IMG/VR virus record: IMGVR_UViG_3300037851_001014
Coordinates: 18,823-82,822 of that record
Strand: one strand, 5' to 3'
Source: a virus
Taxonomy: Duplodnaviria; Caudoviricetes
DNA: 64,000 bases
The position numbers and the translations under genes were made by a program. The notes beneath the pieces are model-generated. The model saw only the letters and a list, made by a program, of their open reading frames with translations. It was not told the DNA's origin and searched no databases. The first letter of the stretch is position 1; every line of letters begins with the position of its first letter. Positions 3,381 through 56,063 of this stretch are shown here, piece after piece.

Positions 3381-3518
3381 CATTGTAAAAAAATGACAGA
3401 GATGTTACAATATTGACATCTCCTTGAATTGGGGTTTTGGGAAAGAACACGCCTGCTCTCCTCAGGCGTGTTCGCATTTATGGTAGAATTTTTGCAAACA
3501 CACATGGAGGATGCGACA

Positions 3519-3740
3519 ATGCCAAACACAGCAAGTTTGCTAGTAGAAGGACCCGAGTGGGAAAGGTTGGTTACGATATGGCTGGAAGAAAAGAAACCAG
3601 CCTTGATGCAGGTCGGCCATATCACCTACGAGGTAGCGACGCCGGACGGTCAGGACAGTCCGGTTTTTATTGCCAAGGGGAACGAACAAGGGATGTACAG
3701 CAGCACCAGCTTTATCTCTGGTGGGAAGGTGAGGAAATGA
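3519..3740 (+). CDS. Hypothetical protein
   Basis: GGAGG RBS before ATG 3519; ATGA overlap with the next gene. Confidence 0.6.
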   Translation: MPNTASLLVEGPEWERLVTIWLEEKKPALMQVGHITYEVATPDGQDSPVFIAKGNEQGMYSSTSFISGGKVRK

Positions 3741-4015
3741 ATGACGACTGTTTTGAAACTTCCCTGGAGGATATTGCGACTGCGCTGGATGCCCGTGGTT
3801 ACCCGTTTACGGTAAGGGTACAGCCATCGCCAGGGGCAAGCAAAATCACCTTGGTTTACGTGTTTGGCATGGAGGCTGTGGCTAACGATCTGGCCATGAT
3901 ACATTCGGGTAGAGCGGGTGAGTTGCAGGTAAGCATAGCGTCTGTGTGGGAGGCGCGAGATCGATGGCGGCGCAACCTGCAGGTTCATGGCGGTGTCCGT
4001 GAAAAAGCTAAGTAA
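3737..4015 (+). CDS. Hypothetical protein directly upstream of terL (no TerS features recognised)
   Basis: ATGA coupling at 3737; overlaps the terL start. Confidence 0.6.
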   Translation: MNDDCFETSLEDIATALDARGYPFTVRVQPSPGASKITLVYVFGMEAVANDLAMIHSGRAGELQVSIASVWEARDRWRRNLQVHGGVREKAK

Positions 4016-5813: not shown

Positions 5814-7439
5814 TTGTTTTCATCGCCGGCAACAACTTATCCAGACCAGATGATAGGTCAGGCCGCACCCGAAGGCATTGACCTTGGCCCATTTAACCTA
5901 GAAAACCTGCACGGATTTCCTGATGACTTGTATCAGGCACAGCGCACGCGCTATGCCAACCTGGAATACTGGTTTGACGGTCGGAAATTCGAGGAAAAGC
6001 AGGTTCAGGGCGGGCGCACAGTCGACAAGTATCCCATACGCCTTAATCCCATCCGCGGTGCCGTTTTCAAACACGCCTATGCCCTTTTTGGAGTAACCGA
6101 GGACGATTCAAGACCCCTTGCTCCTGCAGCGATCAAACTTGCAGACAGCAAGAAGGACAAGGCGACTGTCACGAAAGGGCAGGAGTTCCTTAATCGTGTA
6201 TGGTATGCCAGTCATGGCAGATCCATCATGATGCGCAATGCAATTATTTCTCAGATTTATGGGGGATGTATCTACAAGGTATCTTATGTTCCCAGGCAGC
6301 TTTACAGGCGGATCCCGATCAGTGTCGAGAGCGTGCACCCAAGCAACTTCGTTGGCGTCCCTTTCAGCGGTGATGAGTTCCGACTGGAAGAAGCCTGGGT
6401 AGTGCGGGCGATATCCATGGACGAAGCGGAGCGCAAATACGGCGTTTCGATCAAAGTATCTCCCGGTGAGCCGGTGTATTATATCGAATACTGGAATCCA
6501 GAGGAATACAAGGTCACGATCAATCGAGAACCAGTCTGGACTGGTGCCTACGATACCGGTGGCAAGAAAGTTTACTACGATGGTGAAAACCCTTACGGAA
6601 TTGTCCCGATGGTCTATACCCCGCATATCCGAACGACCGGTTTCTACGGCGACAGCCTTATCAGCAGTAACGTCCAGGGGATTGTCGAGGAGCTCAACAA
6701 GAGAGTGGCAGATTACGGTGATGCTGTCTCTGATGACAGCCATCCCTATTATTATCTTACCGGTTCGTCTGGGCGTCCAGATCTTTATGAATTAGCACCC
6801 GGATTGCGCATTATTCAGCCCCCAATCACTCCTGCGATCACTGGTAAGGAGGCACCGGCCGAGATAGGCAGCCTGGGGCAAACCAAGTCAAGCGCGGCCA
6901 CCAAAGAGCTCACCGAGGAACTTTATGACCATTTCCGGCGCGAAGCCTTCATCCCTGCTGTTGCAGATGGTGAGGACGAGGGCAGCCAGCGGTCTTTCTT
7001 GACCCTGGCAATGCGCATGTGGCCGCTGCTCTCCCATACTGCAATCGAGCGCATTTATCACGGCGATGCGCTCAACTTGATTGACGAGTACATTTTTAGG
7101 ATAGGCAACAACTGGAATCCCTCGGAAGTACCCGAGGTGCTTCTGGATGCGCGCATTGAACGTCGCTGGGCGCCATTACTGCCACGCGATAGCGAGACAT
7201 TTGTCAATGGACTGGTGAGTCGAGCTGGTGCTCATCTTGGATCGCTGGAACACCTTCTGTCTCAGCTACCCGATATCGAGGATGCCGAGGAAGAGGTTAC
7301 CCAGATTTACTCCGAGATGGAGAAACTTGCCAAGATGCAAGCAGCGGCTCAGCCCAAACCCCAGCCGCAAACACCGCCCAAGAAGAAAACTATCGGAGGA
7401 ACAAGTGGACGAGATACAGGAAAACCTAGCAGCAACTGA
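5814..7439 (+). CDS. Portal protein (start uncertain, possibly ATG 5850)
   Basis: ~540 aa after terL; portal-like segments (GGCIYKV, NPYGIVPMVYTPH, GFYGDSLI). Confidence 0.85.
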   Translation: MFSSPATTYPDQMIGQAAPEGIDLGPFNLENLHGFPDDLYQAQRTRYANLEYWFDGRKFEEKQVQGGRTVDKYPIRLNPIRGAVFKHAYALFGVTEDDSRPLAPAAIKLADSKKDKATVTKGQEFLNRVWYASHGRSIMMRNAIISQIYGGCIYKVSYVPRQLYRRIPISVESVHPSNFVGVPFSGDEFRLEEAWVVRAISMDEAERKYGVSIKVSPGEPVYYIEYWNPEEYKVTINREPVWTGAYDTGGKKVYYDGENPYGIVPMVYTPHIRTTGFYGDSLISSNVQGIVEELNKRVADYGDAVSDDSHPYYYLTGSSGRPDLYELAPGLRIIQPPITPAITGKEAPAEIGSLGQTKSSAATKELTEELYDHFRREAFIPAVADGEDEGSQRSFLTLAMRMWPLLSHTAIERIYHGDALNLIDEYIFRIGNNWNPSEVPEVLLDARIERRWAPLLPRDSETFVNGLVSRAGAHLGSLEHLLSQLPDIEDAEEEVTQIYSEMEKLAKMQAAAQPKPQPQTPPKKKTIGGTSGRDTGKPSSN

Positions 7440-8063: not shown

Positions 8064-9434
8064 ATGGCTGATCCCATTACCGATTACTACGCCGATAATC
8101 CTGTCGAGGTCCTCGACAAGAATCAGCGTACCTGGTATGACCCGGACATCCTGAGCCTTTTCCGTCAGCGGAGTTTGTTTACACCAATTATCCGCTACAA
8201 GAAAAATCTGGGCGATGTCCGTGCTACCACGATGGTTGTCTCGCAGTTGCTTGACCCCCATCCTAACTACAATCCGGTCGCCGCACGCCTGTTGTGGCTG
8301 CCTGCCATGCACATCGACTCTCGCAGTGTCGAGATCACCTTCAGCCACTATGCTGGAAAGATTGCTTTGCACGAGTACGATGATTTGGTGACCTACTGGC
8401 AGCAGAACGGCCAGGCTGGCCTGCGCGGTATCCTGAATGGTGCTCTTGGGCAGCACATCGTGGATGTTCACGACTTCGTTGCCCGTAATGCCCTGATCGA
8501 AGGCGCGCTCGAAACGACCGGCTATGTGTACTATGCCGGAAACGCAACCACCTTTAACGATATGGATGCCTCGGATCTGTTCGTGCCCGAAATCGCGGCA
8601 CAGATTCAGCTAGGCATGAAATACCGTGAAGTTGCAAGCGCCATGAACCCCGATGGATCTCCTGGTGCAGTTGTTTGCTACACCAGTCCTGGCGTCATCT
8701 ATGACATCCAGAGTGATCCCGATTGGATTGAAGCCAAGAAGTATGCTGACCCCAATAGCCTGTTGCGCTACGAGGTTGGTACCTACAAGTCGGTGCGGTT
8801 TGTGGAATCGCCCCGCTTGACCCTGTGGAATGCCGGCGCACTGACCGCCCAGGCACCCATTTCTGCAGCCGCACACGCTGGCGATGGAGCACCTGTTCCT
8901 GCCAGTGCGAAAGTCGATGGCGTCTATCGCGTTGGTCAGTCCAGCGGTGGTATCGTCAATTTCCTGCAGCTCGGTGCCTTCGGGACTGGATCGATCAACG
9001 ATATCGCAGTCAACGATATTGTCACTATCCACACTGCTCGCACCAGCGGGTACGGTGTAACCAATGGCGTCGATCCTTTTGATGGCAAGTTGCACAACCG
9101 CCGTGTCATCAGCAAAGATGTTGGAAATGGTCGCATCACCTTGGACAAGCCGATCATGGAAGACTTCGCCACCGATTTGGGCGGCGGCGTCTACGGCTAT
9201 GTCACCAAGGGCTTTAACGTCCACTCAAGCATCTTTGTTGGTGCCCCGAACGCAATTGTCGCCGGTGTTGCACGTCCTGTACGTCTGCACACTCCTCCCC
9301 CGATCGATGACCTGGAAGCGATTTATCGCTACTCCTGGGACTCTCGTGAAGGGATGCAGCCCTATGCGCCCGAGGTCTTCGAAGTTGTCTTTTCGAGTGG
9401 ATCGGTCCGCGTCAAGGGCGCAATGACCGTGTAA
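8064..9434 (+). CDS. Major capsid protein (HK97 fold inferred) with internal insertion
   Basis: GAGG RBS; size and position; capsid-like segments (LRYEVGTYKSVRFVESP, DDLEAIYRYSWD). Confidence 0.85.
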   Translation: MADPITDYYADNPVEVLDKNQRTWYDPDILSLFRQRSLFTPIIRYKKNLGDVRATTMVVSQLLDPHPNYNPVAARLLWLPAMHIDSRSVEITFSHYAGKIALHEYDDLVTYWQQNGQAGLRGILNGALGQHIVDVHDFVARNALIEGALETTGYVYYAGNATTFNDMDASDLFVPEIAAQIQLGMKYREVASAMNPDGSPGAVVCYTSPGVIYDIQSDPDWIEAKKYADPNSLLRYEVGTYKSVRFVESPRLTLWNAGALTAQAPISAAAHAGDGAPVPASAKVDGVYRVGQSSGGIVNFLQLGAFGTGSINDIAVNDIVTIHTARTSGYGVTNGVDPFDGKLHNRRVISKDVGNGRITLDKPIMEDFATDLGGGVYGYVTKGFNVHSSIFVGAPNAIVAGVARPVRLHTPPPIDDLEAIYRYSWDSREGMQPYAPEVFEVVFSSGSVRVKGAMTV

Positions 9435-10506: not shown

Positions 10507-11151
10507 ATGGCTACGCTCGCTGATCTCGTAAGCAAGGTGCGCAGGTTGATCGCTGATGAAAATTCGGCACTCTACTCTGATGCCCTGATAACCGATGGGC
10601 TTCTGACAGCAATCGATGCGATATTGCCGTGGATGCCCAAGCAACTCACGCAAGCCCTTGTCGGAGATGGTGTTGCGGTTTCGTTTGCGCTGCCGTCAAA
10701 CTGCTACAGAATTGTGGCGGTGCTCGACTCAAGCTCTGGTGCTTTTATCCCCGCTCTGCGCATGAACGCCTATGGTTCGCCTGGGGATAATCTAATGACA
10801 AACCAGGACTGGTGCGAGTATCCAGAGGGCTACGTGACGTTTGCTAATACAATTCAGGTCGATGAAAGCATGACTGTTTACTACTCAGCAGTGTGGCCAA
10901 AACCGTCAATCGGTTCAGATGTGATCTCTGTTCCGTCCTATGCACATCCCGCCCTGGCGTACTATGCTGCCAGCTACACCTTGTTGAACAAGGCTACGTC
11001 TGGCGCAAGTCTAAATCAGTGGGATCAGGCAGGCGTCGATAGTGGTACGCCCGTGATGAACCCGATGAAAGACATGTCCAGTTACTTCCTAGAGCGGTTT
11101 CGCATAGAAATGGATCGCTTGCCACATCGAATACGAGGAGCTCATGGCTAA
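10507..11151 (+). CDS. Head-tail adaptor (neck) protein
   Basis: N-terminal TLADLVSKVRRLIAD..YSDALI pattern; position. Confidence 0.7.
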   Translation: MATLADLVSKVRRLIADENSALYSDALITDGLLTAIDAILPWMPKQLTQALVGDGVAVSFALPSNCYRIVAVLDSSSGAFIPALRMNAYGSPGDNLMTNQDWCEYPEGYVTFANTIQVDESMTVYYSAVWPKPSIGSDVISVPSYAHPALAYYAASYTLLNKATSGASLNQWDQAGVDSGTPVMNPMKDMSSYFLERFRIEMDRLPHRIRGAHG

Positions 11152-11719: not shown

Positions 11720-13105
11720 ATGGCTGTTACTGCACAAGCTGGGATTTTCGGGTTTGGACCTCAGGGACAGAAAGGCACCGAGGCGAGTACGTACTACAAG
11801 CACAAGGCGATGGATATCGACCTTGGGCCGATCGATGATACTCGTTTGGGTGCTCTGGAAATTGGCTCTGGGCCATTCCCGACCTTTCCATACAAAGCTG
11901 GCTATGTGGTCGCCGGAGGCGCTGACCTTCAACCTCGCCTGGAAGATACCCTGGGATGGCTGTTTTATGCAGCTATGGGTGATCTTTCTACTGTTCAGGT
12001 TGGTGGCGATGCTGCCTATGACCACACCTTCAAGCCTCTCGCGGCAGATCTGTCTGCAGTGAAATGGCTTTCTGCTCGGAAGTATATTCCGAAGAAAGAC
12101 AACAACGCAACGACTGATCTTGGCGAGAAATTCGTTGACTGCAAATTGCTGGGTATCAACCTGGCTTTCGAAAACGATCAACCGGTTCGTGCACGCCTCG
12201 ATTTTGAGGGACTGGCCTACGAACCCGTTCCGGATCCCTCCGGATGGGGATGGGGCAATGCTGCCTACGAGGACTACCAGTCCGTTCCGGTTGGCTGCGT
12301 CGCTGGCGGATACGTCAAGTTCACCGGCGCTGGCTTGACTGACGAAGCATTGCCCGTTGTTCGAGCAGCTGTGAGTATCCAGAACGTTCCCTTGGATCTT
12401 CGCCAAGAAAAGATCATTGGATCGCCAACCCCCGAGGACATCACTGTTGTCGAGCGGCGTGTAACTTTCGATCTTTTGGTGAAGTGGAACAAGCCTGATA
12501 TGTACTTAGCTGTTCAGACCAACGACTTCGACGGCACCGCCTGGAGCTCAACACCTTTGGTTGGTGAAGTCGAGTTGTACATGCTGGCATCGTCTGTTAT
12601 CGGCGCGACTTCTCACAAGTACGCCTTGACGATCAATGCCCCAGAAGTTATGATGCAGCTGAATGGGCCTCCGACGATGGCAGCCGGGCAGGCAGTTATG
12701 CTGCGCTTGCTGGGTACTGCAATCGAGCCCAGCTCCGGCAGCTACACGACCGTGGTCATTCGCAACGGCGTAACCTCCTACTCCTGGCCTGCCGGCGGCG
12801 TTGATGCCCTGGCTCTGGATAGCAGCGTTCCGACCGACGGTGGAACTGGCATCTCCGTGTCTGCCGATCAGACCCTCACCTTCAATAACCAACTCATCGA
12901 GAGCGCACCCACTCACGTGGTGTTGATGAAGGCCTCCGATGGCTCGATCGTTGCTAGTACCAAGACGCTCAGCGGCAGCCGCCTGGTTGTCACGATCAAC
13001 CCAACCAGCAACCTGAGTGCGTCCACCGAATACATCATCTCGTACGCGGTGGAGGACATCTACGGCCAAAGCCTGGTCGGTGCGATCAACTTCACGACTG
13101 CGTAA
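11720..13105 (+). CDS. Major tail tube protein with C-terminal Ig-like (Big_5-type) domain
   Basis: Tube-like N-terminus (GFGPQGQKGTEA..VAGGADLQPR); C-terminal SSVPTDGGTGISVSADQTLTFN..VTINPTSNLSASTEYII. Confidence 0.85.
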   Translation: MAVTAQAGIFGFGPQGQKGTEASTYYKHKAMDIDLGPIDDTRLGALEIGSGPFPTFPYKAGYVVAGGADLQPRLEDTLGWLFYAAMGDLSTVQVGGDAAYDHTFKPLAADLSAVKWLSARKYIPKKDNNATTDLGEKFVDCKLLGINLAFENDQPVRARLDFEGLAYEPVPDPSGWGWGNAAYEDYQSVPVGCVAGGYVKFTGAGLTDEALPVVRAAVSIQNVPLDLRQEKIIGSPTPEDITVVERRVTFDLLVKWNKPDMYLAVQTNDFDGTAWSSTPLVGEVELYMLASSVIGATSHKYALTINAPEVMMQLNGPPTMAAGQAVMLRLLGTAIEPSSGSYTTVVIRNGVTSYSWPAGGVDALALDSSVPTDGGTGISVSADQTLTFNNQLIESAPTHVVLMKASDGSIVASTKTLSGSRLVVTINPTSNLSASTEYIISYAVEDIYGQSLVGAINFTTA

Positions 13106-13173: not shown

Positions 13174-13656
13174 ATGCCATTTACTGTAATTGCTCCGGAA
13201 CAAAAGACCTTTGTTCTTACCAGTCTCGATGCTTATGGGGCGGTTGATCCAGAACATCCCACAACCATATCGATTAAACAGGCACGAGTTAAACAGAACG
13301 CTGAGCGCTCACAGCTATTGAGCACCTTTAGAACAGAACGCGCTCGCAGCAAGGATGCTTACGGCGACGAGGTTGAGGCAACTGTTATCCAGTTGCCAGT
13401 GTATGACCTTGTTCTCAAAGAGATCTATCTGACAATGGTAGACTGCAATATCGGCACGCCGAACGGCAAGCCGCTTTTCACCTTTTCAAGGTCAAAAGAT
13501 GGCAGTTACCTGAACATGACCTGGGCAGCTTTTGCAGACGCAGCAGGCCTGCTGCCCGATGAGGCCCTTGAGGAAATCCACGGCAAGGTTATTGAGGTAA
13601 ACCCTCACTGGCGCATCAGTCAGGCAGACGAGGACTACAGCCTGGGGGAAGAATAG
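13174..13656 (+). CDS. Tail assembly chaperone (lambda gpG analogue)
   Basis: GAGG RBS; between tail tube and tape measure. Confidence 0.8.
   Translation: MPFTVIAPEQKTFVLTSLDAYGAVDPEHPTTISIKQARVKQNAERSQLLSTFRTERARSKDAYGDEVEATVIQLPVYDLVLKEIYLTMVDCNIGTPNGKPLFTFSRSKDGSYLNMTWAAFADAAGLLPDEALEEIHGKVIEVNPHWRISQADEDYSLGEE
13644..13650 (+). promoter_or_regulatory. Putative -1 programmed frameshift site GGGGGAA
   Basis: CTG GGG GAA GAA TAG at the end of the chaperone gene; the -1 frame is open into the 13668 ORF. Confidence 0.65.
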
Positions 13657-13667: not shown

Positions 13668-13973
13668 TTGCGTGAGCTCGAAGCAATTCTCTGGGACTAC
13701 TACGGGCAGCTAAACGAGATAGCTGCTGGCGTAAAGCCCAAGCCAGAAGATGTCATAGAGAAACCGGAAGCCTTGATGCGCTATGAGCAAGTCAGGGCAC
13801 TCAACATTCCTTACGTAGCCGGTGGCCTTGAGGATCAACCCTACATAACGCTCATGGAAGACGGCGTAGTTGAGATGTTTCTGAAAGCGTGGAAGGGAAT
13901 CCAGAAAAGGCAGGAGCAACAATGGCAGCAAGTATCGGACCACCAAGCGGAGAAGACTTTGCTAGGACCCTAG
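13668..13973 (+). CDS. Second tail chaperone frame (gpT analogue), probably made as a G-T fusion
   Basis: IPYVAGGLEDQP motif; no RBS before the TTG; -1 frame relative to the upstream gene. Confidence 0.75.
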   Translation: MRELEAILWDYYGQLNEIAAGVKPKPEDVIEKPEALMRYEQVRALNIPYVAGGLEDQPYITLMEDGVVEMFLKAWKGIQKRQEQQWQQVSDHQAEKTLLGP

Positions 13974-16900
13974 AAGAACTTATGGGGGACGAGTATCGTG
14001 TTCGCTATATGGGCGAAACCAGATACAATATTGTGCGCTCCAGCCCGCGAGGTGGGCCCAATGGGACTCCTGCTACCATTTCTGGGAACTTCAGTTTTGA
14101 CTTTTGGTCTGCGACTCGTTTCAAGAGCCAGTTTGGTGCAAATAAAGGTTCTGTTGAATATGCTCCGGTGGTGAAGCCAGATCCTTACGAAGAGAGAGGC
14201 TTTGTCGTTCCTGGTGGCATCACATCTGTTGTCGAGAGAAACGAGGAAGATAGAAAGAAGTATATCTCTTCTCACTTCGTAGAAAATCCAGTAACGAGGT
14301 TGGTAAACACACTGGTTTCTGCGTCTGATAGGACTCTTGAAGCAAGGGCGCGCGGCAGAGCAACCAGCACCTGGGAAGGCGCTGCCATGAACATTCTCTC
14401 CGAAGGGGCTCCTGGATCGGAAGAATATGCAGATGTAGCAGGCGGAACGCGGTTTGTAAATAGAAACAACATGTCGATGGTGCGTTCTGCATCAAACATG
14501 CTTATTCTGCAAACCATTACCCCAGAGGATGCCGGAAAAGACGAAAGGTCGATGCGTTCCAGCGCACTGGAATCGCTCAAGTCCTGGATTAGTACTCCGG
14601 CAGTGGCGCGCGATAGCGGAAATTTCCTGGCCTTCAACCAACTTGGTCTGGCGATTGGGCGCAAAAATGCCAATACACTGATACCTTATTCTCAGGGTTA
14701 TAGATCTGTAACTGATCCGTCCGGCCGCGAATACGCTGAAGTTTATCTCCCTGGCGACCCCTCTAAGTCGAGCAAACACTATAATGTCATGTACGGCCGA
14801 CGCGAGGGCGTTACGCCGTTAGATGCCACAGGTGTGCCAATTCAAGCAGGAGCTATTCGGGGCGCTCGGGGGTGGGGCATCAGGAGAACTACAGCAGATT
14901 ATCGTGGGCAGGTACCGCAAGAGAGTTGGATTGGTGGCTTGCTGATGACCAGGTCGCTGCCAATTCCGGGAACCGGACAGTATTTTCCACAGAATGTGTC
15001 TTCTGCTGGAATATCGTCTGTCGGGTTTGATACCGTGCGAGAATTGCCCGTAACCAGTGATATCGGCGGGCTTCTTTCCGGGACTGTCAAATACACACCC
15101 GCGTCCGACTTGATGGGCAGGCATCACCCCGGAATGACCAGAATGAGCTATGGCACACTGGAGGCACAGGGAGAGCTGCCAATTTCTCTCTCGACGAGAA
15201 ACAAGGCGGGCGGCTTCAGACCAAGTAATCAGCAGTTGGTGTTGCCGCAGTATTACGATCCAAAAACCGGCCTGGGTATGGTCTACAGCGAGGGAAACGC
15301 CAGGCTCGGGACAGAGATCACCGAGACACAGGCTGCGGCATTGTCCAAGTCGCTGGGAATTGACGTTCGGCTTGACCCCTTTTCTGATCGTGCGATGTGG
15401 CGTTCCGAGGGGTTCCTATCCACGGGCGCGAAAGTTGCCGGTCTTGGACTTAAGACGGCCTTGACCGCCATGCTTGGAAGACCGTCAATTGGGATTGGGA
15501 AAACTGATCTTCCTGTAGATATAGCCACCGGCGAAGTGAAGTCATTCCCCACGATGCTTCTTTCCAACTTTCCCACTCTTTCCAGGGCAAGGCAAGCCGA
15601 TCTTTTGCGTGAAACTGGCGCGCGCCTGAATAACCCCGCTTTCACACGAGCGGCGTCGCGTGTCCAGAAAGGCGGATATGGCGAAAGATTGGACATGGAA
15701 AGACTTGCAGAGGACATTTATGGCGTTGGAGCTCCAGTAAACGAGCTCATGAAAGAAGTTTACGGCACTGTCGTTCCCGGACTAGGAGAGAATCCTACCC
15801 AGGTGGAGATAGCCAGATACGCAGCGAGCGATGTTAATCTACGCAATCTTGAGCGGTACGGTATAGGGTTTATCGATCCCTCAATGGAAAGCAGGGGCGT
15901 TCGTGTTCCAGAGCTTAGTTGGCGTGTATCTAAGAAACAGTTCGTAGACCTTGAGCAGGCTTATCTTGCGGCAAACCGAGAGCGCGTTATAGCTGCCGGT
16001 GGCGATCCTAGGAAAATCTCTATCAAGGACGCACGCCAGGCCTTTTTGACAGAATATGGTCTGACGCCCGTGGCTAACGAGCCCGGGATGTGGCAAGCGC
16101 ACACTAAGGCAAGCGGTTTTTATATACGCGGGGCTTTGCCACTTGGGGTTGAGTGGTATGGTGCCGGACAAGTGCACGCAGAAGAGGCCCAGCTAGTCAA
16201 TGCTATCTCACCAGAATGGGCTTACCGACTTGGGATTGGGTTGACGCCAGGATCAAAAGGGCGCGGTGGGTATGACAGAAACATATCACCAACTCGACAG
16301 GCGAAAATACTTGCCGCAAAGACTGTTGCGGCAATGTACGCAGATACTCCAATGGGCATAGAGCATTCTGTTGTGACGGATACAATGGCCGGCAATCTGG
16401 TAGCAGATACTGATTTTATGGCCTTGCTGGAGAGAAAGCCAGATAATCCTGGTACTGTTGCCGACTTTGATATCGTAAGGGAAAGAATGCAGAGGGAGAT
16501 GGAGATTGCCTACGGGAATAAGGCAGCCAATGTGGACAAGGTTCCTTTGCAGTTCGGAGATCTTGAGGGCGCCTATCTCCTGCCTGCTGGATCAATCCGG
16601 GCCACTATGGCGGTGGATCAGGCTACAGGACAAGATCAAGCCAGACTTCTTGACAGATATTTAGGTACGCTTGGGCGCGCCTTGAGAGGGCAAGTAGCAG
16701 GCAAGCCAGGGGAAATTACGCATAGCCTGTATGGTCTCGCGGACACCTACGCCGAGTCGATGGGCGTAAGCTCACACACGAAAAGCGACATGGTAAAAGA
16801 TTTGATGGGTTCAGATCTCGGATGGTCTGTTGGTCGCTATGGCTGGGCAGGCGAGGTCCAGCAGCACCAAGTCACTGGCAGCAAGGCAGTCTGGCTGCAA

Positions 16901-19900
16901 CAGATCAGGGCAGAGATAGCTGAACAGGTTGGCGTTGATACAGAGAACAATCCGCTCACAGATGCCGAGATCGAGGAAATATATGGCAGTGTTGCAAATG
17001 TCTCTGCGTTTTCAGAGGGTGTTCCTGGCCTAGCAATGCGCTATCCAATCGTTGGCGGTTCCAAAGAATCTGCCCTGGGCGTTCGTTTTCTAACCCCCGA
17101 ACAAGCGCAAAAGCAAGGTGTCGCTACTGTGGATACCCCCTTTGGGGATTACTGGAACATATCTACCGGGTTGTCTTCTATTTTCCAGGGCGACTTCGAC
17201 TTAGATCAAATGGCGACGCTTATGGGTATAAAAGCGTATCGAGACAAAGGGGGCAAGCTACGCCATTCCTGGACGCAACTGGACGAGAAAGGCAATATCG
17301 ATCCAAAGTTAATGGCCTCTATCAACAGAAGCGCAACCATGAACTACCAGGACCTGCAGCGGAAAATGTTCCCATCGTCCGCTATGCAGAACAGGTTCAA
17401 CCCGCTTCTTGGAGCGTTCTCTGATCGGTTCGCCGGTCAGAATGTTGGAGATCTCGGTTTTTCGTACAGGTTGATGCGTAAGCAAATGGCCGCATCCAGA
17501 TTTTACAATATAGGCGAGCTGCTCACCGGAACGCATATTGTCCAGAAGGCAGCTGGCGAGGAAATGGGTGCGTCATACAACCTGACGCGTGCTCTTGAAT
17601 CGGCATCTATCATGTCTCGTTGGTCGACGGCAAGTATTCAAAAATCACGCGTCTCGCGTGCGCCAGTCTATCAGCCGTACCTTGACAAAAGCACGTCTAT
17701 TCCGGTATCGATGACTGAGATGTTTAGAACGGCGTATCTCAGCACTCCAGAAGGAGCAATGGCTCCTGAGCTTGGCTGGGCAACCCCAGAGGCTAAAGAG
17801 TTGTCTACCGAGCCTCAGTGGACAAAGAGAAAGATAGCACTGACTCCCGAGAATGCCATGCCGTTTCTGCGAGCTTTAACCGAATCTGCCGCGCGTCCTC
17901 ATGTTGTGCCTGGAAAGTTCGCTGATCTTCCATCGCCCAACCTGCTTGCCCGTGCCCTTGCGCCATACCCAGGGATGGCTTTTGGAACAATCAAGCCTAG
18001 GTACCTGAAAGCCTACAACAGCCAATTCAAGACATGGGAAGATCTTGTCGTAGGTGGTGGTACAGACGAGCAAATAGCACAGGCGGGAAAATTCTTCAAG
18101 GGCGTGCCACTGGAGGCAGCTATTAAATCTGCCCAGGAGGCTACCTGGGGACTTGGAGAGAGCGATCAAGACTTGCTGCTCGGCAGACGCACAAAAGGCA
18201 CTGCGGATGTAGTTGAGGCATGGTACAAACAGAACATTCCAGAAGATTTGCAACAGGTCTATGCCAGTACTCTTGCGCAGTCCATGATCGGAAAGGCCTA
18301 CTTCTCGGCGCAGGCTGATGCAACCAAGACGATACCATCCTCATGGGAAAAGTCTGATTTTGGGGCAGAGACTGTTCAACGGGCGCGCCGGTGGCGGGTT
18401 GGATACGACATGGCGCGTGGCATTGTCCCCGAAATGGGTGCGTTCAAGGAGACCTACGATTGGCTAAGTGGCATCGATAGAAGTGTGCGATCCCAGGGAG
18501 CGGAGCTTATCTTGCGCATGGGCAAGCTCTTTGGCGCAGCCGAGGCTGTACCTTTGTCAATGGCCGGCTCTCAGATGCTCTATGAGAAAGCAATGGCAGC
18601 TCCAATATCCTTGCGCTCAAGTACCTATGGCGATATCGGGAATCCTGTTTATACGAACAAGCTCGTCGGAGGGAACAAAAGAGTCGACTCGGGATTATAC
18701 TCGTCTGTTTTGAGCACGGTGGCGAGCACGCTCAATCTTGGCGGTATGGATGTTAATGCGCTGCAGGCTGCTTTCCTTCCAAGTGACGAACAAGGGCTTG
18801 CGCACATGAGACGCGGGAACAGGTTCGAAGACCGTCTCGCTAAAGTTGCTGGCGAAGCCATGTATCACAGCGGACTGTCTGGATACGCAAATCTTGGCTC
18901 GGGCGATCCAACGAAAGCGGTTTCGTCGGCTTTCTCTCTTGTTGAGGACATAGAGCTTGGGGACGGCCAAAGAACGACAGTCGTAATGCACGGAACGCCA
19001 GACTTTCTTCTCCCAATTGGCGGCAAACTGTACGAAGTTGAGACCAAGAATCCCCAAAAGCAGGCCGGTACGAAAGCTGCGCAGATGGAGAAGTACAAGG
19101 CGCAGACTGATATGGTTCGCTATATCATAGAGAAAAAGGTTGGTCGCATACTTAATCCAAATTTAGCGCAAGGCTTTAGGGACAAAGAGGCTGCCGAGCT
19201 TAGATCATCTTTGCGTTGGTATATGCCAGAAGAGCAGATTGATGAGGCATACGAAATGCTCCTCGCCCAGGGTGGCGCTGGCTCGATCTTGTTCAATGTT
19301 GGCGCTGACACAGATCTGTACAAAAGCATAATGCACGGGAAAATCGACAAAGCGCATGCTCAAGTCATGAAAGAAGTGGCGTCTGAAGATAGCCCGTATG
19401 TGGTCGAGAGGGTAGAACCTCTTGCGGGCGGACAATACGCAGAGCGTTTTGAGAAAAACAAAATGCGTGCTATCCGGGAAGTTTACAGCAAGCGCGGCGG
19501 TGTCCTCGAAGAGCTTGTTGGACTGTTGTCGCCTGCACAAAAGTTTCACAGAATGCGCCTTGGGCAAAACCCAGACCTGGCGACCACGTGGCAATCGAGA
19601 CGAGCAATGGATGTTCTTCAGCGCGCTCGGCATGGACTTCTGTCTCTTGGAAAATACTTCTACGATCTAAGGGAGGCGGCTCATGCCGCCAGCCCTGGAG
19701 CAACGAGAGCGGCAACTCCCGAGGAACAAGCCGCAGCTGCATCTACTCCTCCCCAGCCACCTCCAGTGGCACAAAACGCATCATCGCCGCGGGCACAAAC
19801 AGCAACCCCAGGAACAGCACCCGCAAGTCAGACACCAATTACCAACGCCGCAGATATGCCTATTGAGGAACTACGTGCACGGGCTAGCATGCTTGGATTA

Positions 19901-22900
19901 TCCAGGACAGCTGCTGCGAAGAAAACAAAAGAGCAATTGGTTGAGTTTCTCGATCCAGCAAATAAGGACAGGACACCAGTAGGCCAGAGGCTGAGCAAGT
20001 CAAGCATAAGCGATCTTCAGAGAGGTCTACTGGAGGCAGATTCAGCAATGGCTTATGCACCTTACGTGCCTCCTCCTGCCACGCCTGTTCAGGCAAATCC
20101 TGGACCGACTGCAGGAGCCGCGCCCCCTCCTTCAGTCCCGCCAACGCCTGGTGTCAACGCTGCTGCTGCAGCCGCAGCAACGGCCGGGCTTGCGGCGATG
20201 GCTGGTGGTGGTCAACCTGGTAGCCCTGGTGATACAAGTGGTTCCCCGGGACAGCCACCCGAGGGAGGCGGGTTTATCAAGCCGACCTCAGTGGCGCAGC
20301 AGATCGTCGGACTTTACCGCACGCGGGGACAGGCAATCCAGGAGGCAGCAATTGCCCTGCGAACTCAGTTTGGCGTTACAGAACGTGGAACTTTGAGGAG
20401 AGGTATTACGGGACGCGAGGAAGAATTTGCCCAGGCAGCCCTAAAGCATCAAGAGGCGATTATGGACGCCCAGGCTCTGGTGGCTATGGGAGTGGCTTTC
20501 CAGAAAGGGCCGCGTGGCGTCGATATGGGCTTTCTTGACAAAGATGCTGCTGATATCATAGACAAGGTAACGACAACTGGCACACCTATGGGGAAAGATC
20601 TGTTAGATCTGGAGGGCGCCGGGCAGGAGATGACCAGATATAGCAAAGCGGCGATCAAGAGAGCCAGGCTTGCAAACCTCGAAAGAAGGCTTGCCACAGG
20701 TGGTGTCGGCGACCAGATATCTAGTTGGTTTGGGGATGGTGTTACTCCCATGGATCCTGACGACCTGGCTGCCCAGATAGAGAAAAACCCAGCAGCCGCC
20801 GAGGCTTTCAGAATTGCTAGGAACTTTTCCAAAAAAGATGCTACCCGTATGGCGAGCGAGTTCCCAAGATCCGCAGCACTCATACAGTACACAGAGGGCA
20901 TGAAGGGCCATCCTGGGTTTGATGCCGCTATCAAAGAAAAGCCCGCTGCGACCAAGTCTCTCATTGCTGATGACGTAAAGGCGACGTGGGCGGAGAAGTT
21001 TACCAGGGCCGCTGACGAAGCCACTGCAGCGCTCAAGAAGTTTAGTGGAGCCGCCCAAAAAACAAGTGATCTCCACGAGAAAACAGCCCAGGCGTTGAAG
21101 GCTCTGAGCATAGAGGAAGCCTACGGCAAGCTCATTACAGCTGCCGCCAAGGTTGGCAAGGAGCCAGAGAAGGACAACCTTGGCAGACTCAAGCTATCGC
21201 CTACGGGAAGAGCACAGTACGAGAGTCTGACAGCACAGGAGGCCGCCGCGGCTGAGATTGGCGATGTCGAATCGTACCAAAGCGCCCTGACTGGATTCCA
21301 GCAGGCTACTACAGCCCCCACTACCAAGAAAGGGGCTATTGGGAGGCTTGTTGACAGACTTGCTGGGCCTCCTGAACCAGACGATCCGGCGATCAACATG
21401 CGCCGATTCCTGGGTGGCTTTGGCCTGATGTACCTTCGCAGTCTGTGGGGCATTGCGACTGGCGGTCTTGGATACGGTATGCAGGAGCGCGCTGAGACAA
21501 TGCAGCAGCTTGGCGGTCCCTCGGCGCAGATGTTTGGGGCGATATACAGACCGAATGTCCCTGGTGTTGCTTTGAGAAACATTATGGGTGCTACTGGCGT
21601 AGGCGGAAACCCGCTGCTGCAGTTCCAGGAGATGTATGCACGCACCCCCTTGCTGCAGGACGCAGGTACCGCACTTGGCGCAGGGCTAGGAACCTATGCT
21701 CTTGCCCAGCAGGTCGGAATGTGGAGCGGCAGCAATACCCTAAAGAGCATCCTTGGTAAATGGGCTGTTCCAATCGCAGCTGGGGTTAGCGCAGCAACGT
21801 TGCTGTCTTCCGCTGCCGGAAAGCTGTCAGACACAGAGAGCGTTGGCTACCGTCTTGCTACGGCGCCTGTGCTCGGAAAATCATTCACCGACGAGTGGGC
21901 ATACTTGATGGGCAGTCAGCAGCAAAAGGAGCAGATTGGCATCGCAATAGGACAATATGAAAGAATAACAAAGGGTGGATTTTCTCAAGGTAGCACCAGG
22001 AACATTCGGTCTGTGTCGCAGATGATTCCCGTCGATACTCCAGTAGGAGAGTATTTTGGAACAGTTGAGGAGAAGATCAGCCTGGCTGCGACCGGACGAC
22101 CGGACTTGTACAATACTCTTACCGAGGGCCAAAGAGCTAGCACCTATCAGCGTCTGACGCAAGCCCAGATATCGCATTTTGCCCCACAGTTTTCGGCAGA
22201 GGCGAGTCAGGCTGCTATGGATTTTGCCTTTAGAACAAGAGCCGTTATGGGGCAGACAGGAATGCAGACGCTCACGGCACGCATCCAGCAGGGTTACTCT
22301 CCGCAGATTGCCCAGGCATACATGGCAGCAAGTGGTTATTCTGTAGCCGGAATGTATGCTGGTGCTGCTGGCCCTGGGACGCAAGCCAACCTGATGAACT
22401 ATTACAATACGCTTGCTCCAATGGCCACAACGCAGAACTTGCCGTATCTCGAAGCGGCCATTGGCGTCATGGGAGCGACAATTCCCATGAATACCTATAT
22501 AACCCAGATGGGCATGCGTGGTGCGATCGGCATGGACACCGAGGCATATCAAAAGGCATTGGCTGCCCTGGTACCAGGAAGCTCGCAATACAACCAATAC
22601 ACTGCCGCAGGTGCTCAATGGGCGCGGCTGCAGGAATTTGGACGTGCAGCATCACCGCCGAATCCTGTAGACTTCACAACTATGAATGCTCAGGAAACGC
22701 GCCTTGAGGAGCTAAGGCAGGCTGAAATGCAAGAAAGCCTGAACACAGAGGATGCTCTGCAAAGAGCATTGGTTCTCAGGGGCTTCTCCGCCCAAGACGC
22801 CTACGCCTTCACCAGGGGGATTTATACAACAGCGAGGGGCGGCCAGCTGAGCGAGTATGAAACCACCACCGAGCTTGGCAGAGAACTGGAAAGACAGCAG

Positions 22901-25042
22901 CGACTTGGGCTAGTGGAGAAGTGGTTTACCGATCGCGGTGTTTCTGCTCGACAGCGCAAGCAGATGTATGCCCCAGAATACGAAAAAATGAGCATCTCTC
23001 AACTGCAGCAATACATGCAGAAGCAGAGCGTCGCAGAAGGGCTAGAGAGTGCACTTATCGGTGCAGGCGTAAGCTATAACATCAGCGACATTCTGGCCAT
23101 ACCTGGTGGCACTATGCAGCAGGCAGCTGTATCTGCTTCAGTGGCCCAGGAGATTCAAGCGCAAGCTGCCAGCGGAGTAACTGGTTTTAGCCTGACGCAG
23201 CTTTACGAAAACGCAAAAGGAGCGGGGCCTCAAGAGTTTGCTGGTATGGTTTCTACGCAGCAGTGGATGCGCGAGACAATGGCTCCCCTGATGCGGCAAA
23301 CAGGCAGGATGCCAGGATGGGCTGCTGATGCATGGGCAACTAGCGGCCAGAGTGCTGCAAACTGGGGAGCGAACGTTCCTCGTGCATGGCGGGATATCTA
23401 TCAAGGTGTTGCCCAATATGACCCCTGGGCATCTACCCAAATGTATGCCTATCAGCAGATGGGAATACAGCCACCCAACATCGGATTGCCAGAATTGACT
23501 AATCTCCCGTCCGAGATGGTAACACGGGACATCTGGCAAACCGGCCCGATGGCCGGACTTCCGCTCAATGCGCCAATGTGGACAGTCTCCGGTGCGTCGC
23601 ACCCCAACTTCCCGCTACTGCAGGCTACTACTGGCGGAGCAGTGAATTGGGGTACTGGCGTAGGCAAGGCATTCTCTCAGGGATACACGATACCCGGAAT
23701 GAGCTTCCCCGTTGCAGGCATTATGGGTATGCAGAGTTACATGCAGCAGCTGCAGTATCAGTCTGGCATGGCGCAAATCGGCAACCAGCTCGCTCAGCTT
23801 AACATGTCGATGGCTTTCCAGACTGGCGTTGGCCTGGATGCATATGCGGGAATAATCAACCCACAGACCAACAAGCCGTTCGGATTCAATACCGGCCCTT
23901 CTAGCTGGAGTATTCCTGGCGTTGGCAGATACACATCTGAGGGCGGTGGCATGTGGGGCATCCAGGATGCCATGCGTAACCTAGGTTATGCTCAACAGGA
24001 ATGGCAGTTTGGTTTTCAGGAACGCCAACTTGGGATGAGTCGCTCGCAGTTTGCCGAGAACTTCTCTCTCAACAGGCAACAGACCTTGATGCAGCGTGGC
24101 TGGGCAATGCAGGATTGGGGCTACCAGGACACCACCCGCAATCTGCAGTGGCAGTGGCGGCAAGAGGACTATGCCGAACAGGCAAGATTCATGACCGGTC
24201 GCGATCGGCGTCTTGCAGAGCGCGGAATGAAGCGCGAGACCACCATGTTCAATCTTGAGACTGAACAGATCGATAAACAACGCGAGCGGCAGAAAGAGAT
24301 GTGGAAACTGGAGGACGAGCGCTTCAAGCTGCAGAAGAAACACTTCGAAGAGCAGATGGTCATGCAGGAAGAGCAGCAAGATATGATGCGCAAGTTCTAT
24401 GCCGAGCGTATCGCCCTTGAAGAAGAGCAGATCAAGCTGCAGCGTGCCCAGCAGGTTCAGCAGGCGGAATATCAGAAGCAATCCCTGGGTATCCAGGCGG
24501 CCATGCTTGCGGCCCAAAAGGAATACTCAGAGATCCAATCCGGGATCGAGCTTGCTAACTTGGCGATCCAGTCTGGCATTGCCGATGTTCAGGCCAAACA
24601 GTCCGGACTCGTCACCTTAACCGAGGATAATATAGAAGCTGTGTTTGCCTCGCTAAACGACTGGATTGCTAGAGTTCTCGGTACTCTAGGCGGGGGACCT
24701 CCTGTGCCCACCACCACGAACCCCCCGCATAGTCAGAGTGGCTATATACCAGAAGAGGATATAGAGTCAGATCCGCCCACTCACGGCGGTGCGCACGGCA
24801 CTTTTGTCAGTGCTGGTCAAGGAACCGTTGTCAGCGAGGAGGGGCTAATCGAGTTCTTTACTCCCCAGAACAGCGGCACGATAATCCCGCTCAAGTCGTT
24901 CAATGCCTGGACAACCACTGTGATGCCATCGCAAAAGCCGGTTGTTGAAACGAGCACACCCAAGACCATAAACATTTTCATTGGTGATCAACACCTCAAG
25001 ACGTTTGTGCTGGACGCGATAGACGAAGCGCTGGAGGCATAG
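13922..25042 (+). CDS. Tape measure protein fused to an N-terminal two-barrel RNA polymerase, a PD-(D/E)xK nuclease and a HeH-like domain (3706 aa)
   Basis: AGGAG + ATG 13922; tape-measure position; C-terminal W/Q coiled coil, hydrophobic segments and VSEEGLIEFFTPQNSGTIIP end motif; RNAP motifs at 15425-15454 and 17192-17206; nuclease motifs at 19001 and 19040-19048. Confidence 0.85.
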   Translation: MAASIGPPSGEDFARTLEELMGDEYRVRYMGETRYNIVRSSPRGGPNGTPATISGNFSFDFWSATRFKSQFGANKGSVEYAPVVKPDPYEERGFVVPGGITSVVERNEEDRKKYISSHFVENPVTRLVNTLVSASDRTLEARARGRATSTWEGAAMNILSEGAPGSEEYADVAGGTRFVNRNNMSMVRSASNMLILQTITPEDAGKDERSMRSSALESLKSWISTPAVARDSGNFLAFNQLGLAIGRKNANTLIPYSQGYRSVTDPSGREYAEVYLPGDPSKSSKHYNVMYGRREGVTPLDATGVPIQAGAIRGARGWGIRRTTADYRGQVPQESWIGGLLMTRSLPIPGTGQYFPQNVSSAGISSVGFDTVRELPVTSDIGGLLSGTVKYTPASDLMGRHHPGMTRMSYGTLEAQGELPISLSTRNKAGGFRPSNQQLVLPQYYDPKTGLGMVYSEGNARLGTEITETQAAALSKSLGIDVRLDPFSDRAMWRSEGFLSTGAKVAGLGLKTALTAMLGRPSIGIGKTDLPVDIATGEVKSFPTMLLSNFPTLSRARQADLLRETGARLNNPAFTRAASRVQKGGYGERLDMERLAEDIYGVGAPVNELMKEVYGTVVPGLGENPTQVEIARYAASDVNLRNLERYGIGFIDPSMESRGVRVPELSWRVSKKQFVDLEQAYLAANRERVIAAGGDPRKISIKDARQAFLTEYGLTPVANEPGMWQAHTKASGFYIRGALPLGVEWYGAGQVHAEEAQLVNAISPEWAYRLGIGLTPGSKGRGGYDRNISPTRQAKILAAKTVAAMYADTPMGIEHSVVTDTMAGNLVADTDFMALLERKPDNPGTVADFDIVRERMQREMEIAYGNKAANVDKVPLQFGDLEGAYLLPAGSIRATMAVDQATGQDQARLLDRYLGTLGRALRGQVAGKPGEITHSLYGLADTYAESMGVSSHTKSDMVKDLMGSDLGWSVGRYGWAGEVQQHQVTGSKAVWLQQIRAEIAEQVGVDTENNPLTDAEIEEIYGSVANVSAFSEGVPGLAMRYPIVGGSKESALGVRFLTPEQAQKQGVATVDTPFGDYWNISTGLSSIFQGDFDLDQMATLMGIKAYRDKGGKLRHSWTQLDEKGNIDPKLMASINRSATMNYQDLQRKMFPSSAMQNRFNPLLGAFSDRFAGQNVGDLGFSYRLMRKQMAASRFYNIGELLTGTHIVQKAAGEEMGASYNLTRALESASIMSRWSTASIQKSRVSRAPVYQPYLDKSTSIPVSMTEMFRTAYLSTPEGAMAPELGWATPEAKELSTEPQWTKRKIALTPENAMPFLRALTESAARPHVVPGKFADLPSPNLLARALAPYPGMAFGTIKPRYLKAYNSQFKTWEDLVVGGGTDEQIAQAGKFFKGVPLEAAIKSAQEATWGLGESDQDLLLGRRTKGTADVVEAWYKQNIPEDLQQVYASTLAQSMIGKAYFSAQADATKTIPSSWEKSDFGAETVQRARRWRVGYDMARGIVPEMGAFKETYDWLSGIDRSVRSQGAELILRMGKLFGAAEAVPLSMAGSQMLYEKAMAAPISLRSSTYGDIGNPVYTNKLVGGNKRVDSGLYSSVLSTVASTLNLGGMDVNALQAAFLPSDEQGLAHMRRGNRFEDRLAKVAGEAMYHSGLSGYANLGSGDPTKAVSSAFSLVEDIELGDGQRTTVVMHGTPDFLLPIGGKLYEVETKNPQKQAGTKAAQMEKYKAQTDMVRYIIEKKVGRILNPNLAQGFRDKEAAELRSSLRWYMPEEQIDEAYEMLLAQGGAGSILFNVGADTDLYKSIMHGKIDKAHAQVMKEVASEDSPYVVERVEPLAGGQYAERFEKNKMRAIREVYSKRGGVLEELVGLLSPAQKFHRMRLGQNPDLATTWQSRRAMDVLQRARHGLLSLGKYFYDLREAAHAASPGATRAATPEEQAAAASTPPQPPPVAQNASSPRAQTATPGTAPASQTPITNAADMPIEELRARASMLGLSRTAAAKKTKEQLVEFLDPANKDRTPVGQRLSKSSISDLQRGLLEADSAMAYAPYVPPPATPVQANPGPTAGAAPPPSVPPTPGVNAAAAAAATAGLAAMAGGGQPGSPGDTSGSPGQPPEGGGFIKPTSVAQQIVGLYRTRGQAIQEAAIALRTQFGVTERGTLRRGITGREEEFAQAALKHQEAIMDAQALVAMGVAFQKGPRGVDMGFLDKDAADIIDKVTTTGTPMGKDLLDLEGAGQEMTRYSKAAIKRARLANLERRLATGGVGDQISSWFGDGVTPMDPDDLAAQIEKNPAAAEAFRIARNFSKKDATRMASEFPRSAALIQYTEGMKGHPGFDAAIKEKPAATKSLIADDVKATWAEKFTRAADEATAALKKFSGAAQKTSDLHEKTAQALKALSIEEAYGKLITAAAKVGKEPEKDNLGRLKLSPTGRAQYESLTAQEAAAAEIGDVESYQSALTGFQQATTAPTTKKGAIGRLVDRLAGPPEPDDPAINMRRFLGGFGLMYLRSLWGIATGGLGYGMQERAETMQQLGGPSAQMFGAIYRPNVPGVALRNIMGATGVGGNPLLQFQEMYARTPLLQDAGTALGAGLGTYALAQQVGMWSGSNTLKSILGKWAVPIAAGVSAATLLSSAAGKLSDTESVGYRLATAPVLGKSFTDEWAYLMGSQQQKEQIGIAIGQYERITKGGFSQGSTRNIRSVSQMIPVDTPVGEYFGTVEEKISLAATGRPDLYNTLTEGQRASTYQRLTQAQISHFAPQFSAEASQAAMDFAFRTRAVMGQTGMQTLTARIQQGYSPQIAQAYMAASGYSVAGMYAGAAGPGTQANLMNYYNTLAPMATTQNLPYLEAAIGVMGATIPMNTYITQMGMRGAIGMDTEAYQKALAALVPGSSQYNQYTAAGAQWARLQEFGRAASPPNPVDFTTMNAQETRLEELRQAEMQESLNTEDALQRALVLRGFSAQDAYAFTRGIYTTARGGQLSEYETTTELGRELERQQRLGLVEKWFTDRGVSARQRKQMYAPEYEKMSISQLQQYMQKQSVAEGLESALIGAGVSYNISDILAIPGGTMQQAAVSASVAQEIQAQAASGVTGFSLTQLYENAKGAGPQEFAGMVSTQQWMRETMAPLMRQTGRMPGWAADAWATSGQSAANWGANVPRAWRDIYQGVAQYDPWASTQMYAYQQMGIQPPNIGLPELTNLPSEMVTRDIWQTGPMAGLPLNAPMWTVSGASHPNFPLLQATTGGAVNWGTGVGKAFSQGYTIPGMSFPVAGIMGMQSYMQQLQYQSGMAQIGNQLAQLNMSMAFQTGVGLDAYAGIINPQTNKPFGFNTGPSSWSIPGVGRYTSEGGGMWGIQDAMRNLGYAQQEWQFGFQERQLGMSRSQFAENFSLNRQQTLMQRGWAMQDWGYQDTTRNLQWQWRQEDYAEQARFMTGRDRRLAERGMKRETTMFNLETEQIDKQRERQKEMWKLEDERFKLQKKHFEEQMVMQEEQQDMMRKFYAERIALEEEQIKLQRAQQVQQAEYQKQSLGIQAAMLAAQKEYSEIQSGIELANLAIQSGIADVQAKQSGLVTLTEDNIEAVFASLNDWIARVLGTLGGGPPVPTTTNPPHSQSGYIPEEDIESDPPTHGGAHGTFVSAGQGTVVSEEGLIEFFTPQNSGTIIPLKSFNAWTTTVMPSQKPVVETSTPKTINIFIGDQHLKTFVLDAIDEALEA

Positions 25043-52239: not shown

Positions 52240-52540
52240 TCTCGCCCCAATATTCTACCGCCACTGGCCCACCGGTCAGCACAGATGCAGCATATACAGA
52301 GATCCATTGTCCAGGCGCAAATGCCAAATTGGCAACAACGGGCTTTTCGGTACCCTTGTTGTTCCAAAAGACGATACCTCCGCTTGCTGTAAACTCTACC
52401 TCATCCGCTACCAACCAGATCACGTTCACCTTACCCAACTTGGAAACCGGCACCGTAACGCAGAAGTAGTGCCTACCATACTGCTGTGTGCCTGTACCGA
52501 TTTGCGATCGGGGCGATACTTTTACCGGTTTATCACCCAT
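52226..52540 (-). CDS. Hypothetical protein
   Basis: GGAGG + ATG 52540. Confidence 0.6.
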   Translation of the reverse strand: MGDKPVKVSPRSQIGTGTQQYGRHYFCVTVPVSKLGKVNVIWLVADEVEFTASGGIVFWNNKGTEKPVVANLAFAPGQWISVYAASVLTGGPVAVEYWGENEAT

Positions 52541-56061: not shown

Positions 56062-56063
56062 AT

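Follow-up and report, generated by a model that had tools for sequence, protein, structure and literature searches.

We identified a candidate nuclease domain within the presumed tape-measure protein of a tailed virus (Duplodnaviria; Caudoviricetes). The window, by which we mean the whole stretch of DNA that was analyzed (64,000 nucleotides, positions 18,823 to 82,822 of IMG/VR virus record IMGVR_UViG_3300037851_001014), contains a giant open reading frame (ORF) at 13889-25042 on the + strand, a single uninterrupted frame of 3,717 codons that encloses the region under study, 18600-19300. Motifs and a protein language-model search suggest that residues ~1630-1790 of its product form a very diverged, cysteine-free PD-(D/E)xK fold of the RecB/AddB/Cas4/YqaJ type, a reading that we hold to be probable. 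The fuller explanation, in which a diverged nuclease is carried as cargo by the tape measure and resects DNA ends at the entry pore, is the best overall that we can offer, and we give it an even chance of being correct. The candidate domain and its motifs, in window coordinates, are the following.

18776-19258, + strand: candidate PD-(D/E)xK nuclease domain, residues ~1630-1790, proposed from motifs and the language-model search, with approximate boundaries
18815-18829, + strand: motif I, G1643-N-R-F-E1647, in a predicted helix (from the sequence and predicted secondary structure)
18992-19003, + strand: motif II, G1702-T-P-D1705, at the end of predicted strand 2, TTVVMHGTPD (from the sequence, a hidden Markov model (HMM) and hhalign)
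19040-19048, + strand: motif III, E1718-T-K1720, in predicted strand 3, KLYEVETK (from the sequence, HMM and hhalign)
19082-19105, + strand: motif IV, Q1732-MEK-Y1736 (QxxxY) overlapping Y1736-KA-Q1739 (YxxQ), at the start of a long predicted helix

A sequence-only reading of this DNA had pointed to four short motifs, and each was located in the giant protein: RRGNRFED at 18809 (residues 1641-1648, nucleotides 18809-18832), HGTPDF (residues 1701-1706, nucleotides 18989-19006, with Asp1705 at 19001-19003), LYEVETK (residues 1714-1720, nucleotides 19028-19048, with E1718-T-K1720 at 19040-19048) and KYKAQ (residues 1735-1739, nucleotides 19091-19105). An additional motif that it had not named, Q1732-MEK-Y1736, corresponds to the QxxxY of the RecB family. 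The catalytic set is complete (E1647, D1705, E1718, K1720 and Q1732/Y1736), with E1718 lying 13 residues past D1705 and Q1732 12 residues past K1720, and the order and spacing of the motifs are compatible with PD-(D/E)xK nucleases of the RecB/AddB/Cas4/YqaJ type. The segment VVMHGTPDFLLPIGGKLYEVETK resembles the PDDEXK_1 consensus 'L.G.IDRV.....G.....DYK ... QL..Y', which was built from 16 genuine domains of five bacterial genomes.

Beyond the motifs, the positive evidence has one source, a language-model search of the ESM Atlas. With the 135-residue core of the domain (residues 1630-1764) as the query, the top score was 0.95, a level of at least which is reached by about 1 in 100 shuffled proteins, and the recognition value was 2836; PDDEXK_1 (PF12705) was the common family in 27 of the 30 best named clusters. 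A differently cut query of 327 residues scored 0.80-0.85, and its named matches (Tox-REase-9, VRR_NUC and Tox-REase-7) are, by name, all restriction-endonuclease-fold families. The result carries weight because the family returned is the one that had been predicted beforehand from the motifs.

Structure prediction by AlphaFold2, run without an alignment, yielded models of low confidence, with a predicted local distance difference test score (pLDDT) of 37.0 for residues 1590-1850 and 42.7 for residues 1625-1800. Both models contain a helix over motif I, three to four strands over SLVEDIE, TTVVMHGT and LYEVETK, and a long helix from about residue 1729. The predicted elements run helix-strand-strand-strand-helix, with D1705 after strand 2 and the ExK in strand 3, an order that would fit the one expected of a PD-(D/E)xK fold, whose core is alpha-beta-beta-beta-alpha-beta.

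The main alternative is that there is no nuclease at all, and that the motifs are a chance constellation in a linker or packing region between a polymerase-like module upstream and the ruler part of the protein downstream. We consider this doubtful, with appreciable weight nonetheless, and a series of results counts in its favor and against a nuclease. Every profile method was silent: searches of Pfam, PHROGs, PADLOC, NCBIfam and PDB sequences with several cuts of the domain left it unrecognized at E values up to 10, hmmscan placed neither PF12705 nor the YqaJ profile PF09588 on it at E up to 10, a six-frame search of the genome with PF12705, PF09588, PF01930 and PF10926 gave no match, and an HMM of ten stand-alone phage exonucleases did not match within the domain. 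Both structure predictions are unusable as evidence of fold, and a Foldseek search with the better model (pLDDT 42.7) returned noise, with no meaningful match. The language-model matches share 141-150 of 256 features with the query, which the search's own calibration assigns to distant relatives or chance hits, and the language model may react to the same motifs, in which case the two lines of evidence are not fully independent. In motif I, a Glu occupies the position of the RecB-family His, which is invariant in the 16 reference domains and which, in the family's G-x3-H-x2-L-E helix, acts as third metal ligand. We take this Glu (G-x3-E, 'G..hE') to be the YqaJ/lambda-exonuclease form.

Alignment to the family was weak. 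A custom HMM of 16 domains, run unfiltered on residues 1630-1790, scored 1.9 bits, a value reached by 32 of 2,000 shuffles (p ~0.016). It set G1702, D1705, E1718, K1720 and Q1739 on the G, D, D, K and Q columns of the family and left motif I unaligned, and hhalign found the same register at a non-significant E value of 0.18. The register of the Gln is ambiguous, as both methods put Q1739, not Q1732, on the invariant Gln column. When 160-residue windows were slid along the sequences and scored with the PDDEXK_1 HMM, the domain region scored highest within the giant protein once low-complexity windows were set aside, and windows of several other ORFs scored equal or higher; among windows of real ORFs its score is therefore unexceptional. 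Two weak matches were rejected. One, a Pfam match to DUF4397 (E=0.11), was treated as noise. The other, a tblastn near-match of the motif II-IV stretch to Weissella phage proteins (E=0.1-0.5), was set aside as chance on account of metallophosphoesterase-type motifs; that an unrelated metallophosphoesterase-like protein should come so near to this stretch is itself a point for the chance reading.

The pattern G..D / [DE].K / Q...Y, taken from 16 PDDEXK_1 domains, matches the giant protein once, at residue 1702. When the protein is shuffled with its composition preserved, 9.4% of the shuffles contain the same pattern, which favors chance, and 4.3% contain it with motif I added. A version with hydrophobic context, partly fitted to the giant protein itself, appears in 0.2% and speaks for a real domain. 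In six-frame ORFs of at least 150 residues from unrelated bacterial loci, which served as the chance background, seven matches were counted in ~437,000 residues, or ~0.06 expected per 3,717 residues. The motifs by themselves are suggestive, not decisive, and only moderately above chance. What speaks for a nuclease over coincidence is that the language model returned the family to which the motifs had already pointed (27 of the 30 best named matches, up to 0.95), and that the second query yielded only restriction-endonuclease-fold families; with these goes the placement of all four motifs, at typical spacing, on the expected secondary-structure elements of the low-confidence models.

No relative of the protein was found in any of the collections searched. 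A phmmer search with residues 1487-1893 detected none at E ≤0.001 among 1.84 billion representative proteins, residues 1480-1950, residues 850-1450 and the 135-residue core gave none in word-indexed searches of 5.8 billion clusters, and tblastn detected none in 50,697 phage records with the domain, residues 1-1500 or residues 2101-3717. A scan of JGI metagenome contigs with residues 1000-1900 was likewise negative, and IMG/VR scans with the nuclease domain and with the tail tube protein returned only the record itself. Because no homologue was detected, the conservation of the catalytic residues cannot be compared, which also stands on the side of caution.

As to the branch of the superfamily, the sequence-only reading had called the domain Cas4-like. 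In the strict sense this fails: the domain has none of the four conserved cysteines with which Cas4 binds an iron-sulfur (Fe-S) cluster, and PF01930 has no match in the genome. The domain cannot be a Cas4 or AddB-type Fe-S nuclease, because the giant protein contains no cysteine whatever in its 3,717 residues (as against 53 tryptophans). The absence of cysteine may be an adaptation to unfolded passage through the tail and the periplasm. Apart from the Glu of motif I, the motifs are RecB-like, QxxxY among them. We file the domain as one that would work like a RecB/YqaJ-type end nuclease, with membership in PDDEXK_1 not demonstrated. The broader claim, that this is a PD-(D/E)xK nuclease, survives as the best available reading, given that the language-model search returns PDDEXK_1 and restriction-endonuclease-fold families, but its fold is unproven and the profiles are silent.

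The virus record is a linear IMG/VR sequence of 82,822 bp with an estimated completeness of 80%, and the only sequencing run listed as carrying it, kept as contigs, is of freshwater metagenome DNA and probably the source; no RNA run is listed. In its longest form the giant ORF starts with GTG at 13889; ATG 13922 or ATG 13982 is a likelier start, the latter giving the 3,686-residue form on the record. Two ORFs on the opposite strand, 18695-19057 and 19205-19633, are far shorter and lie wholly inside the giant ORF, and we take them to be its shadows. The GC content of the region is even. The following genes lie around it.

5814-7439: portal (PHROG 64)
8064-9434: major head protein (PHROG 1357)
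10507-11151: adaptor, SU10-type
11720-13105: tail tube protein candidate, 461 residues, with a C-terminal Big_5 Ig-like domain
13174-13656 and 13668-13973: two small ORFs of chaperone size, of which the second runs into the start of the giant ORF
13889-25042, + strand: giant ORF, read from synteny and size as a tape-measure protein with cargo domains
After the giant ORF: tail-tip ORFs of 143 and 1,401 residues

This gene order is that of a classical long non-contractile (siphovirus) tail module, and the giant ORF was assigned as the tape-measure protein because of its slot in that module and its size. The whole giant protein has zero Pfam or PHROG matches, and thus none to a tape-measure family. 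Directly upstream of the portal, in the slot expected for the large terminase, a 550-residue ORF (3987-5639, + strand) also has no Pfam or PHROG match, which underlines the strong divergence of this phage.

Within the giant protein, the candidate nuclease is flanked by the following features.

17036-17206, + strand: RNA-polymerase-like motifs MRYP (residues 1050-1053) and DFDLD (residues 1102-1106), recognized from motifs only
19679-19855, + strand: linker 1, rich in Pro, Ala, Ser and Thr (residues ~1931-1989), from a composition scan
19856-19951, + strand: putative nucleic-acid-binding helix-extended-helix (HeH)/SAP-type, Rho_N-like motif (residues 1990-2021), from Pfam Rho_N
20039-20278, + strand: linker 2, rich in Pro, Ala and Gly (residues ~2051-2130), from a composition scan

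The segment GDFDLDQM (residues 1100-1107), with MRYP 52 residues upstream, appears to resemble the catalytic loop and the R-x-P strand of the RNA polymerase beta-prime subunit. Pfam RNA_pol_Rpb1_2 has no match in the genome, and no RNA-polymerase profile matches the giant protein. The nuclease had been described as lying directly behind the virion RNA polymerase; it does follow the polymerase-like module in the same chain, but motif I (residue 1643) is 540 residues past DFDLD (residue 1102). In gp96 of Thermus phage P23-45, the active polymerase fragment extends 345 residues past DFDGD (PMC10770324), and by analogy some 150-200 residues would separate the polymerase-like module from the nuclease here.

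Downstream of the domain, the HeH motif MPIEELRARASMLGLSRTAAAKKTKEQLVEFL (32 residues, 1990-2021) has Pfam Rho_N as its top match (E=0.0012, 19.2 bits, under the 24.9-bit cut-off) and likely binds nucleic acid; it lies between the ruler and the enzymatic half. The two linkers separate the enzymatic front half from the ruler part, which starts past linker 2 and includes Gly/hydrophobic segments at residues 2507-2520 and 2621-2639 and a charged, coiled-coil-like stretch at residues ~3431-3550. These features are best explained by the layout RNA-polymerase-like module, nuclease, Pro/Ala linker, HeH motif, linker 2 and ruler, with the nuclease as a second cargo.

Nucleases that carry the RecB/Cas4/YqaJ motifs are exonucleases that depend on DNA ends, and for this reason DNA-end resection would be the most likely job of the domain. 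In other siphoviruses the tape measure is expelled before the DNA and helps form the channel, and the same is assumed here. A few copies of the nuclease per virion would then arrive at the inner face of the envelope, beside the polymerase module and the first DNA end, and would resect the end of the linear phage DNA as it enters, 5' to 3' and to a limited extent. Resection would expose single-stranded DNA, as template or promoter, to the virion polymerase, and redundant ends, once resected, would be ready for annealing and circularization by a Sak4-like protein. The N4 virion polymerase needs single-stranded promoter hairpins. In a crAss-like phage, single-stranded or denatured DNA is an efficient template for the virion two-barrel polymerase, and double-stranded DNA is hardly transcribed at all (bioRxiv 10.1101/2020.03.07.982082). 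We infer delivery into the cell, activity, substrate and coupling to transcription, and the specific job proposed, resection of a DNA end next to the injected polymerase at the entry pore, is tentative. A difficulty for it is that self-resection by a few membrane-tethered copies would destroy sequence unless the ends are redundant. Unlikely, in our estimate, is the more elaborate version of an 'entry complex', in which the pore-tethered nuclease would resect the first end into a single-stranded template for the injected two-barrel polymerase, allowing pre-early transcription, and perhaps the pulling-in of DNA, with no host factor. Were such a design to recur in unrelated tape-measure proteins, it would amount to a general way, so far undescribed, around the template problem of virion polymerases.

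The Sak4-like AAA_24 protein is encoded at 52533-53306 on the - strand. Searches of the 82.8-kb record with PF12705, PF09588, PF01930 and PF10926 detected no stand-alone exonuclease of the RecB, Cas4, YqaJ or DUF2800 type. The missing stand-alone partner for the Sak4-like protein is weak evidence, given the divergence of this phage. A 188-residue ORF beside the Sak4-like gene (53303-53869) has no family and no nuclease motif.

An active nuclease could instead be directed at foreign DNA (the host chromosome, plasmids, prophages or superinfecting phages), as a weapon of takeover or counter-defense that might be freed from the ruler if the Pro/Ala linkers were cleaved. We regard this as an outside chance. 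Enzymes with these RecB/Cas4/YqaJ motifs require DNA ends and are not known to read methylation, and a circular chromosome has no ends to offer; the copies per virion would also be few, and tethered to a membrane-inserted ruler. The phage does invest heavily in DNA modification, with a C5-cytosine methylase, a DUF4942 methyltransferase and DUF5131, which fits a weapon of this kind. The enzymes that phages and plasmids co-inject are regarded as working mainly at the very start of the conflict with the host, and DNases among them were proposed to degrade host or rival DNA, but in polyvalent proteins no other DNase domain accompanies or replaces the ParB-like DNases (PMC5512222). The strict form offered in the sequence-only reading, an attack on host DNA from which the phage is protected by its own methylation, fits least well: the methylases are real, but this is the worst fit for an end-dependent RecB-type domain.

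It is also conceivable, and in our view improbable, that a PD-(D/E)xK fold acts here on RNA or RNA-DNA hybrids, in transcript release, 3'-end formation or the generation of primers, or that it merely holds or caps the DNA end. A role on RNA would suit a domain that follows the polymerase-like module in the same chain and is itself followed by a Rho_N-like motif, of an RNA/DNA-binding type. The transcripts of the P23-45 virion polymerase end at an unusual conserved motif, from which its authors infer unusual termination, and there is an analogy with the PD-(D/E)xK endonucleases that are fused to the polymerases of segmented negative-strand RNA viruses such as influenza virus and bunyavirus. The motif set GxxD, ExK and QxxxY, however, belongs to DNA-end exonucleases and not to the cap-snatching enzymes, and the intactness of every catalytic residue speaks against a role in binding alone.

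The window also carries a cluster of genes of DNA-modification or anti-restriction type at 55537-61193 on the - strand.

55537-56061, - strand: RadC-like JAB protein
56311-57747, - strand: DUF4942 methyltransferase
58211-59158, - strand: DUF5131, with 40-51% identical relatives in genomes of many phyla
59755-60234, - strand: DUF2227
60204-61193, - strand: C5-cytosine methylase

With its relatives spread over so many phyla, the DUF5131 sequence gives no host signal. Two further proteins of DnaB_C type are encoded on the - strand, a shorter DnaB_C/KaiC-like ATPase of 284 residues at 49646-50500 and a full DnaB-like helicase of 422 residues at 61841-63109.

Other fusions of a polymerase, a nuclease and a ruler were sought through the polymerase motif. 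Scanning IMG/VR for ADFDGDQM-encoding DNA turned up 120 loci, most of them ordinary beta-prime genes, and in 44 of these viral records the PF12705 matches were stand-alone only, in open frames of 259-317 residues. A tblastn search of phages with a fused beta/beta-prime ORF showed no tape-measure annotation among the 40 of 51 records listed. One IMG/VR contig (L152:5866-12045; also L200 and L148) holds a single ORF of 2,060 residues with the ADFDGDQM beta-prime loop at residue 1409. In these viral contigs the ORF appears to encode a polymerase with beta and beta-prime fused. Vibrio phages D181, D148 and D69 have counterparts of it at 28% identity, in a region that is annotated there as several hypothetical proteins.

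If the nuclease is real, long-tailed phages can inject a DNA-processing and a transcription enzyme on a single polypeptide. This would be relevant to two questions, how a virion polymerase with a preference for single-stranded DNA gets under way on a double-stranded genome, and how linear genomes survive and circularize in the first seconds of infection. If the reading is true, the design would be far older and more widespread than sequence searches reveal.

Among known families, PDDEXK_1 (PF12705) is the nearest by language model. The domain shares with it the order and spacing of the motifs (a helix with G-x3-(H/E), then G-x-x-D behind a hydrophobic strand, (D/E)-x-K on the strand that follows and Q-x3-Y in the helix beyond), with the catalytic columns in register by HMM and hhalign. 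In the family the (D/E)-x-K comes 10-20 residues after the Asp, and here it comes 13 residues after it. It differs in having no significant profile match, a Glu in place of the motif I His and no Fe-S cysteines, and whereas the phage PDDEXK_1 matches retrieved lie in the open frames of 259-317 residues mentioned above, the present domain is embedded in a virion protein of 3,717 residues. YqaJ and lambda exonuclease (PF09588) offer a second likeness, in the 'RG..FE' helix with its Glu at motif I, the 'PD', the 'ExK' and the 'Y..Q', but their profile does not match and the language model points to PDDEXK_1. The usual partner of lambda exonuclease and YqaJ is an adjacent annealase gene; here, by contrast, the domain sits in a structural gene ~33 kb from the Sak4-like gene.

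For the protein as a whole, the closest counterpart is gp96 of Thermus phage P23-45, a 5,002-residue tape measure with a proven N-terminal virion two-barrel polymerase that was proposed to be injected and to act at the entry pore (PMC10770324). Like gp96, and its counterparts in P74-26, G20c and TSP4, the present protein is the giant tape measure of a long-tailed phage, with a DFDxD motif in its N-terminal part and a ruler in its C-terminal part. In gp96, Pfam detects Peptidase_M23 only and no nuclease, and the paper mentions none (PMC10770324), whereas the present protein shows no peptidase domain and has a candidate nuclease and an HeH motif. BLASTP of gp96 residues 1101-2500 against residues 1501-2000 of the giant protein showed no similarity.

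Polyvalent proteins are multi-enzyme polypeptides that are co-injected with invading DNA and are active before gene expression (Iyer et al. 2017, PMC5512222). The present protein resembles them in having several enzymatic domains on one chain that would travel with the DNA, but their carriers are of the MuF/head or conjugation type, and the term 'tape measure' is absent from that paper (PMC5512222). Our literature searches turned up no account of a nuclease within a tape measure. The sequence-only reading had stated that it knew of no triple fusion of RNA polymerase, nuclease and tape measure; we found no paper on one, but its polymerase and tape-measure half had already been published for P23-45 gp96. 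Tape-measure proteins are also known to carry cell-wall enzymes and, since 2024, in one group of Thermus phages, an RNA polymerase. With other enzyme cargo on tape measures already established, what would be new here, if real, is a nuclease as tape-measure cargo.

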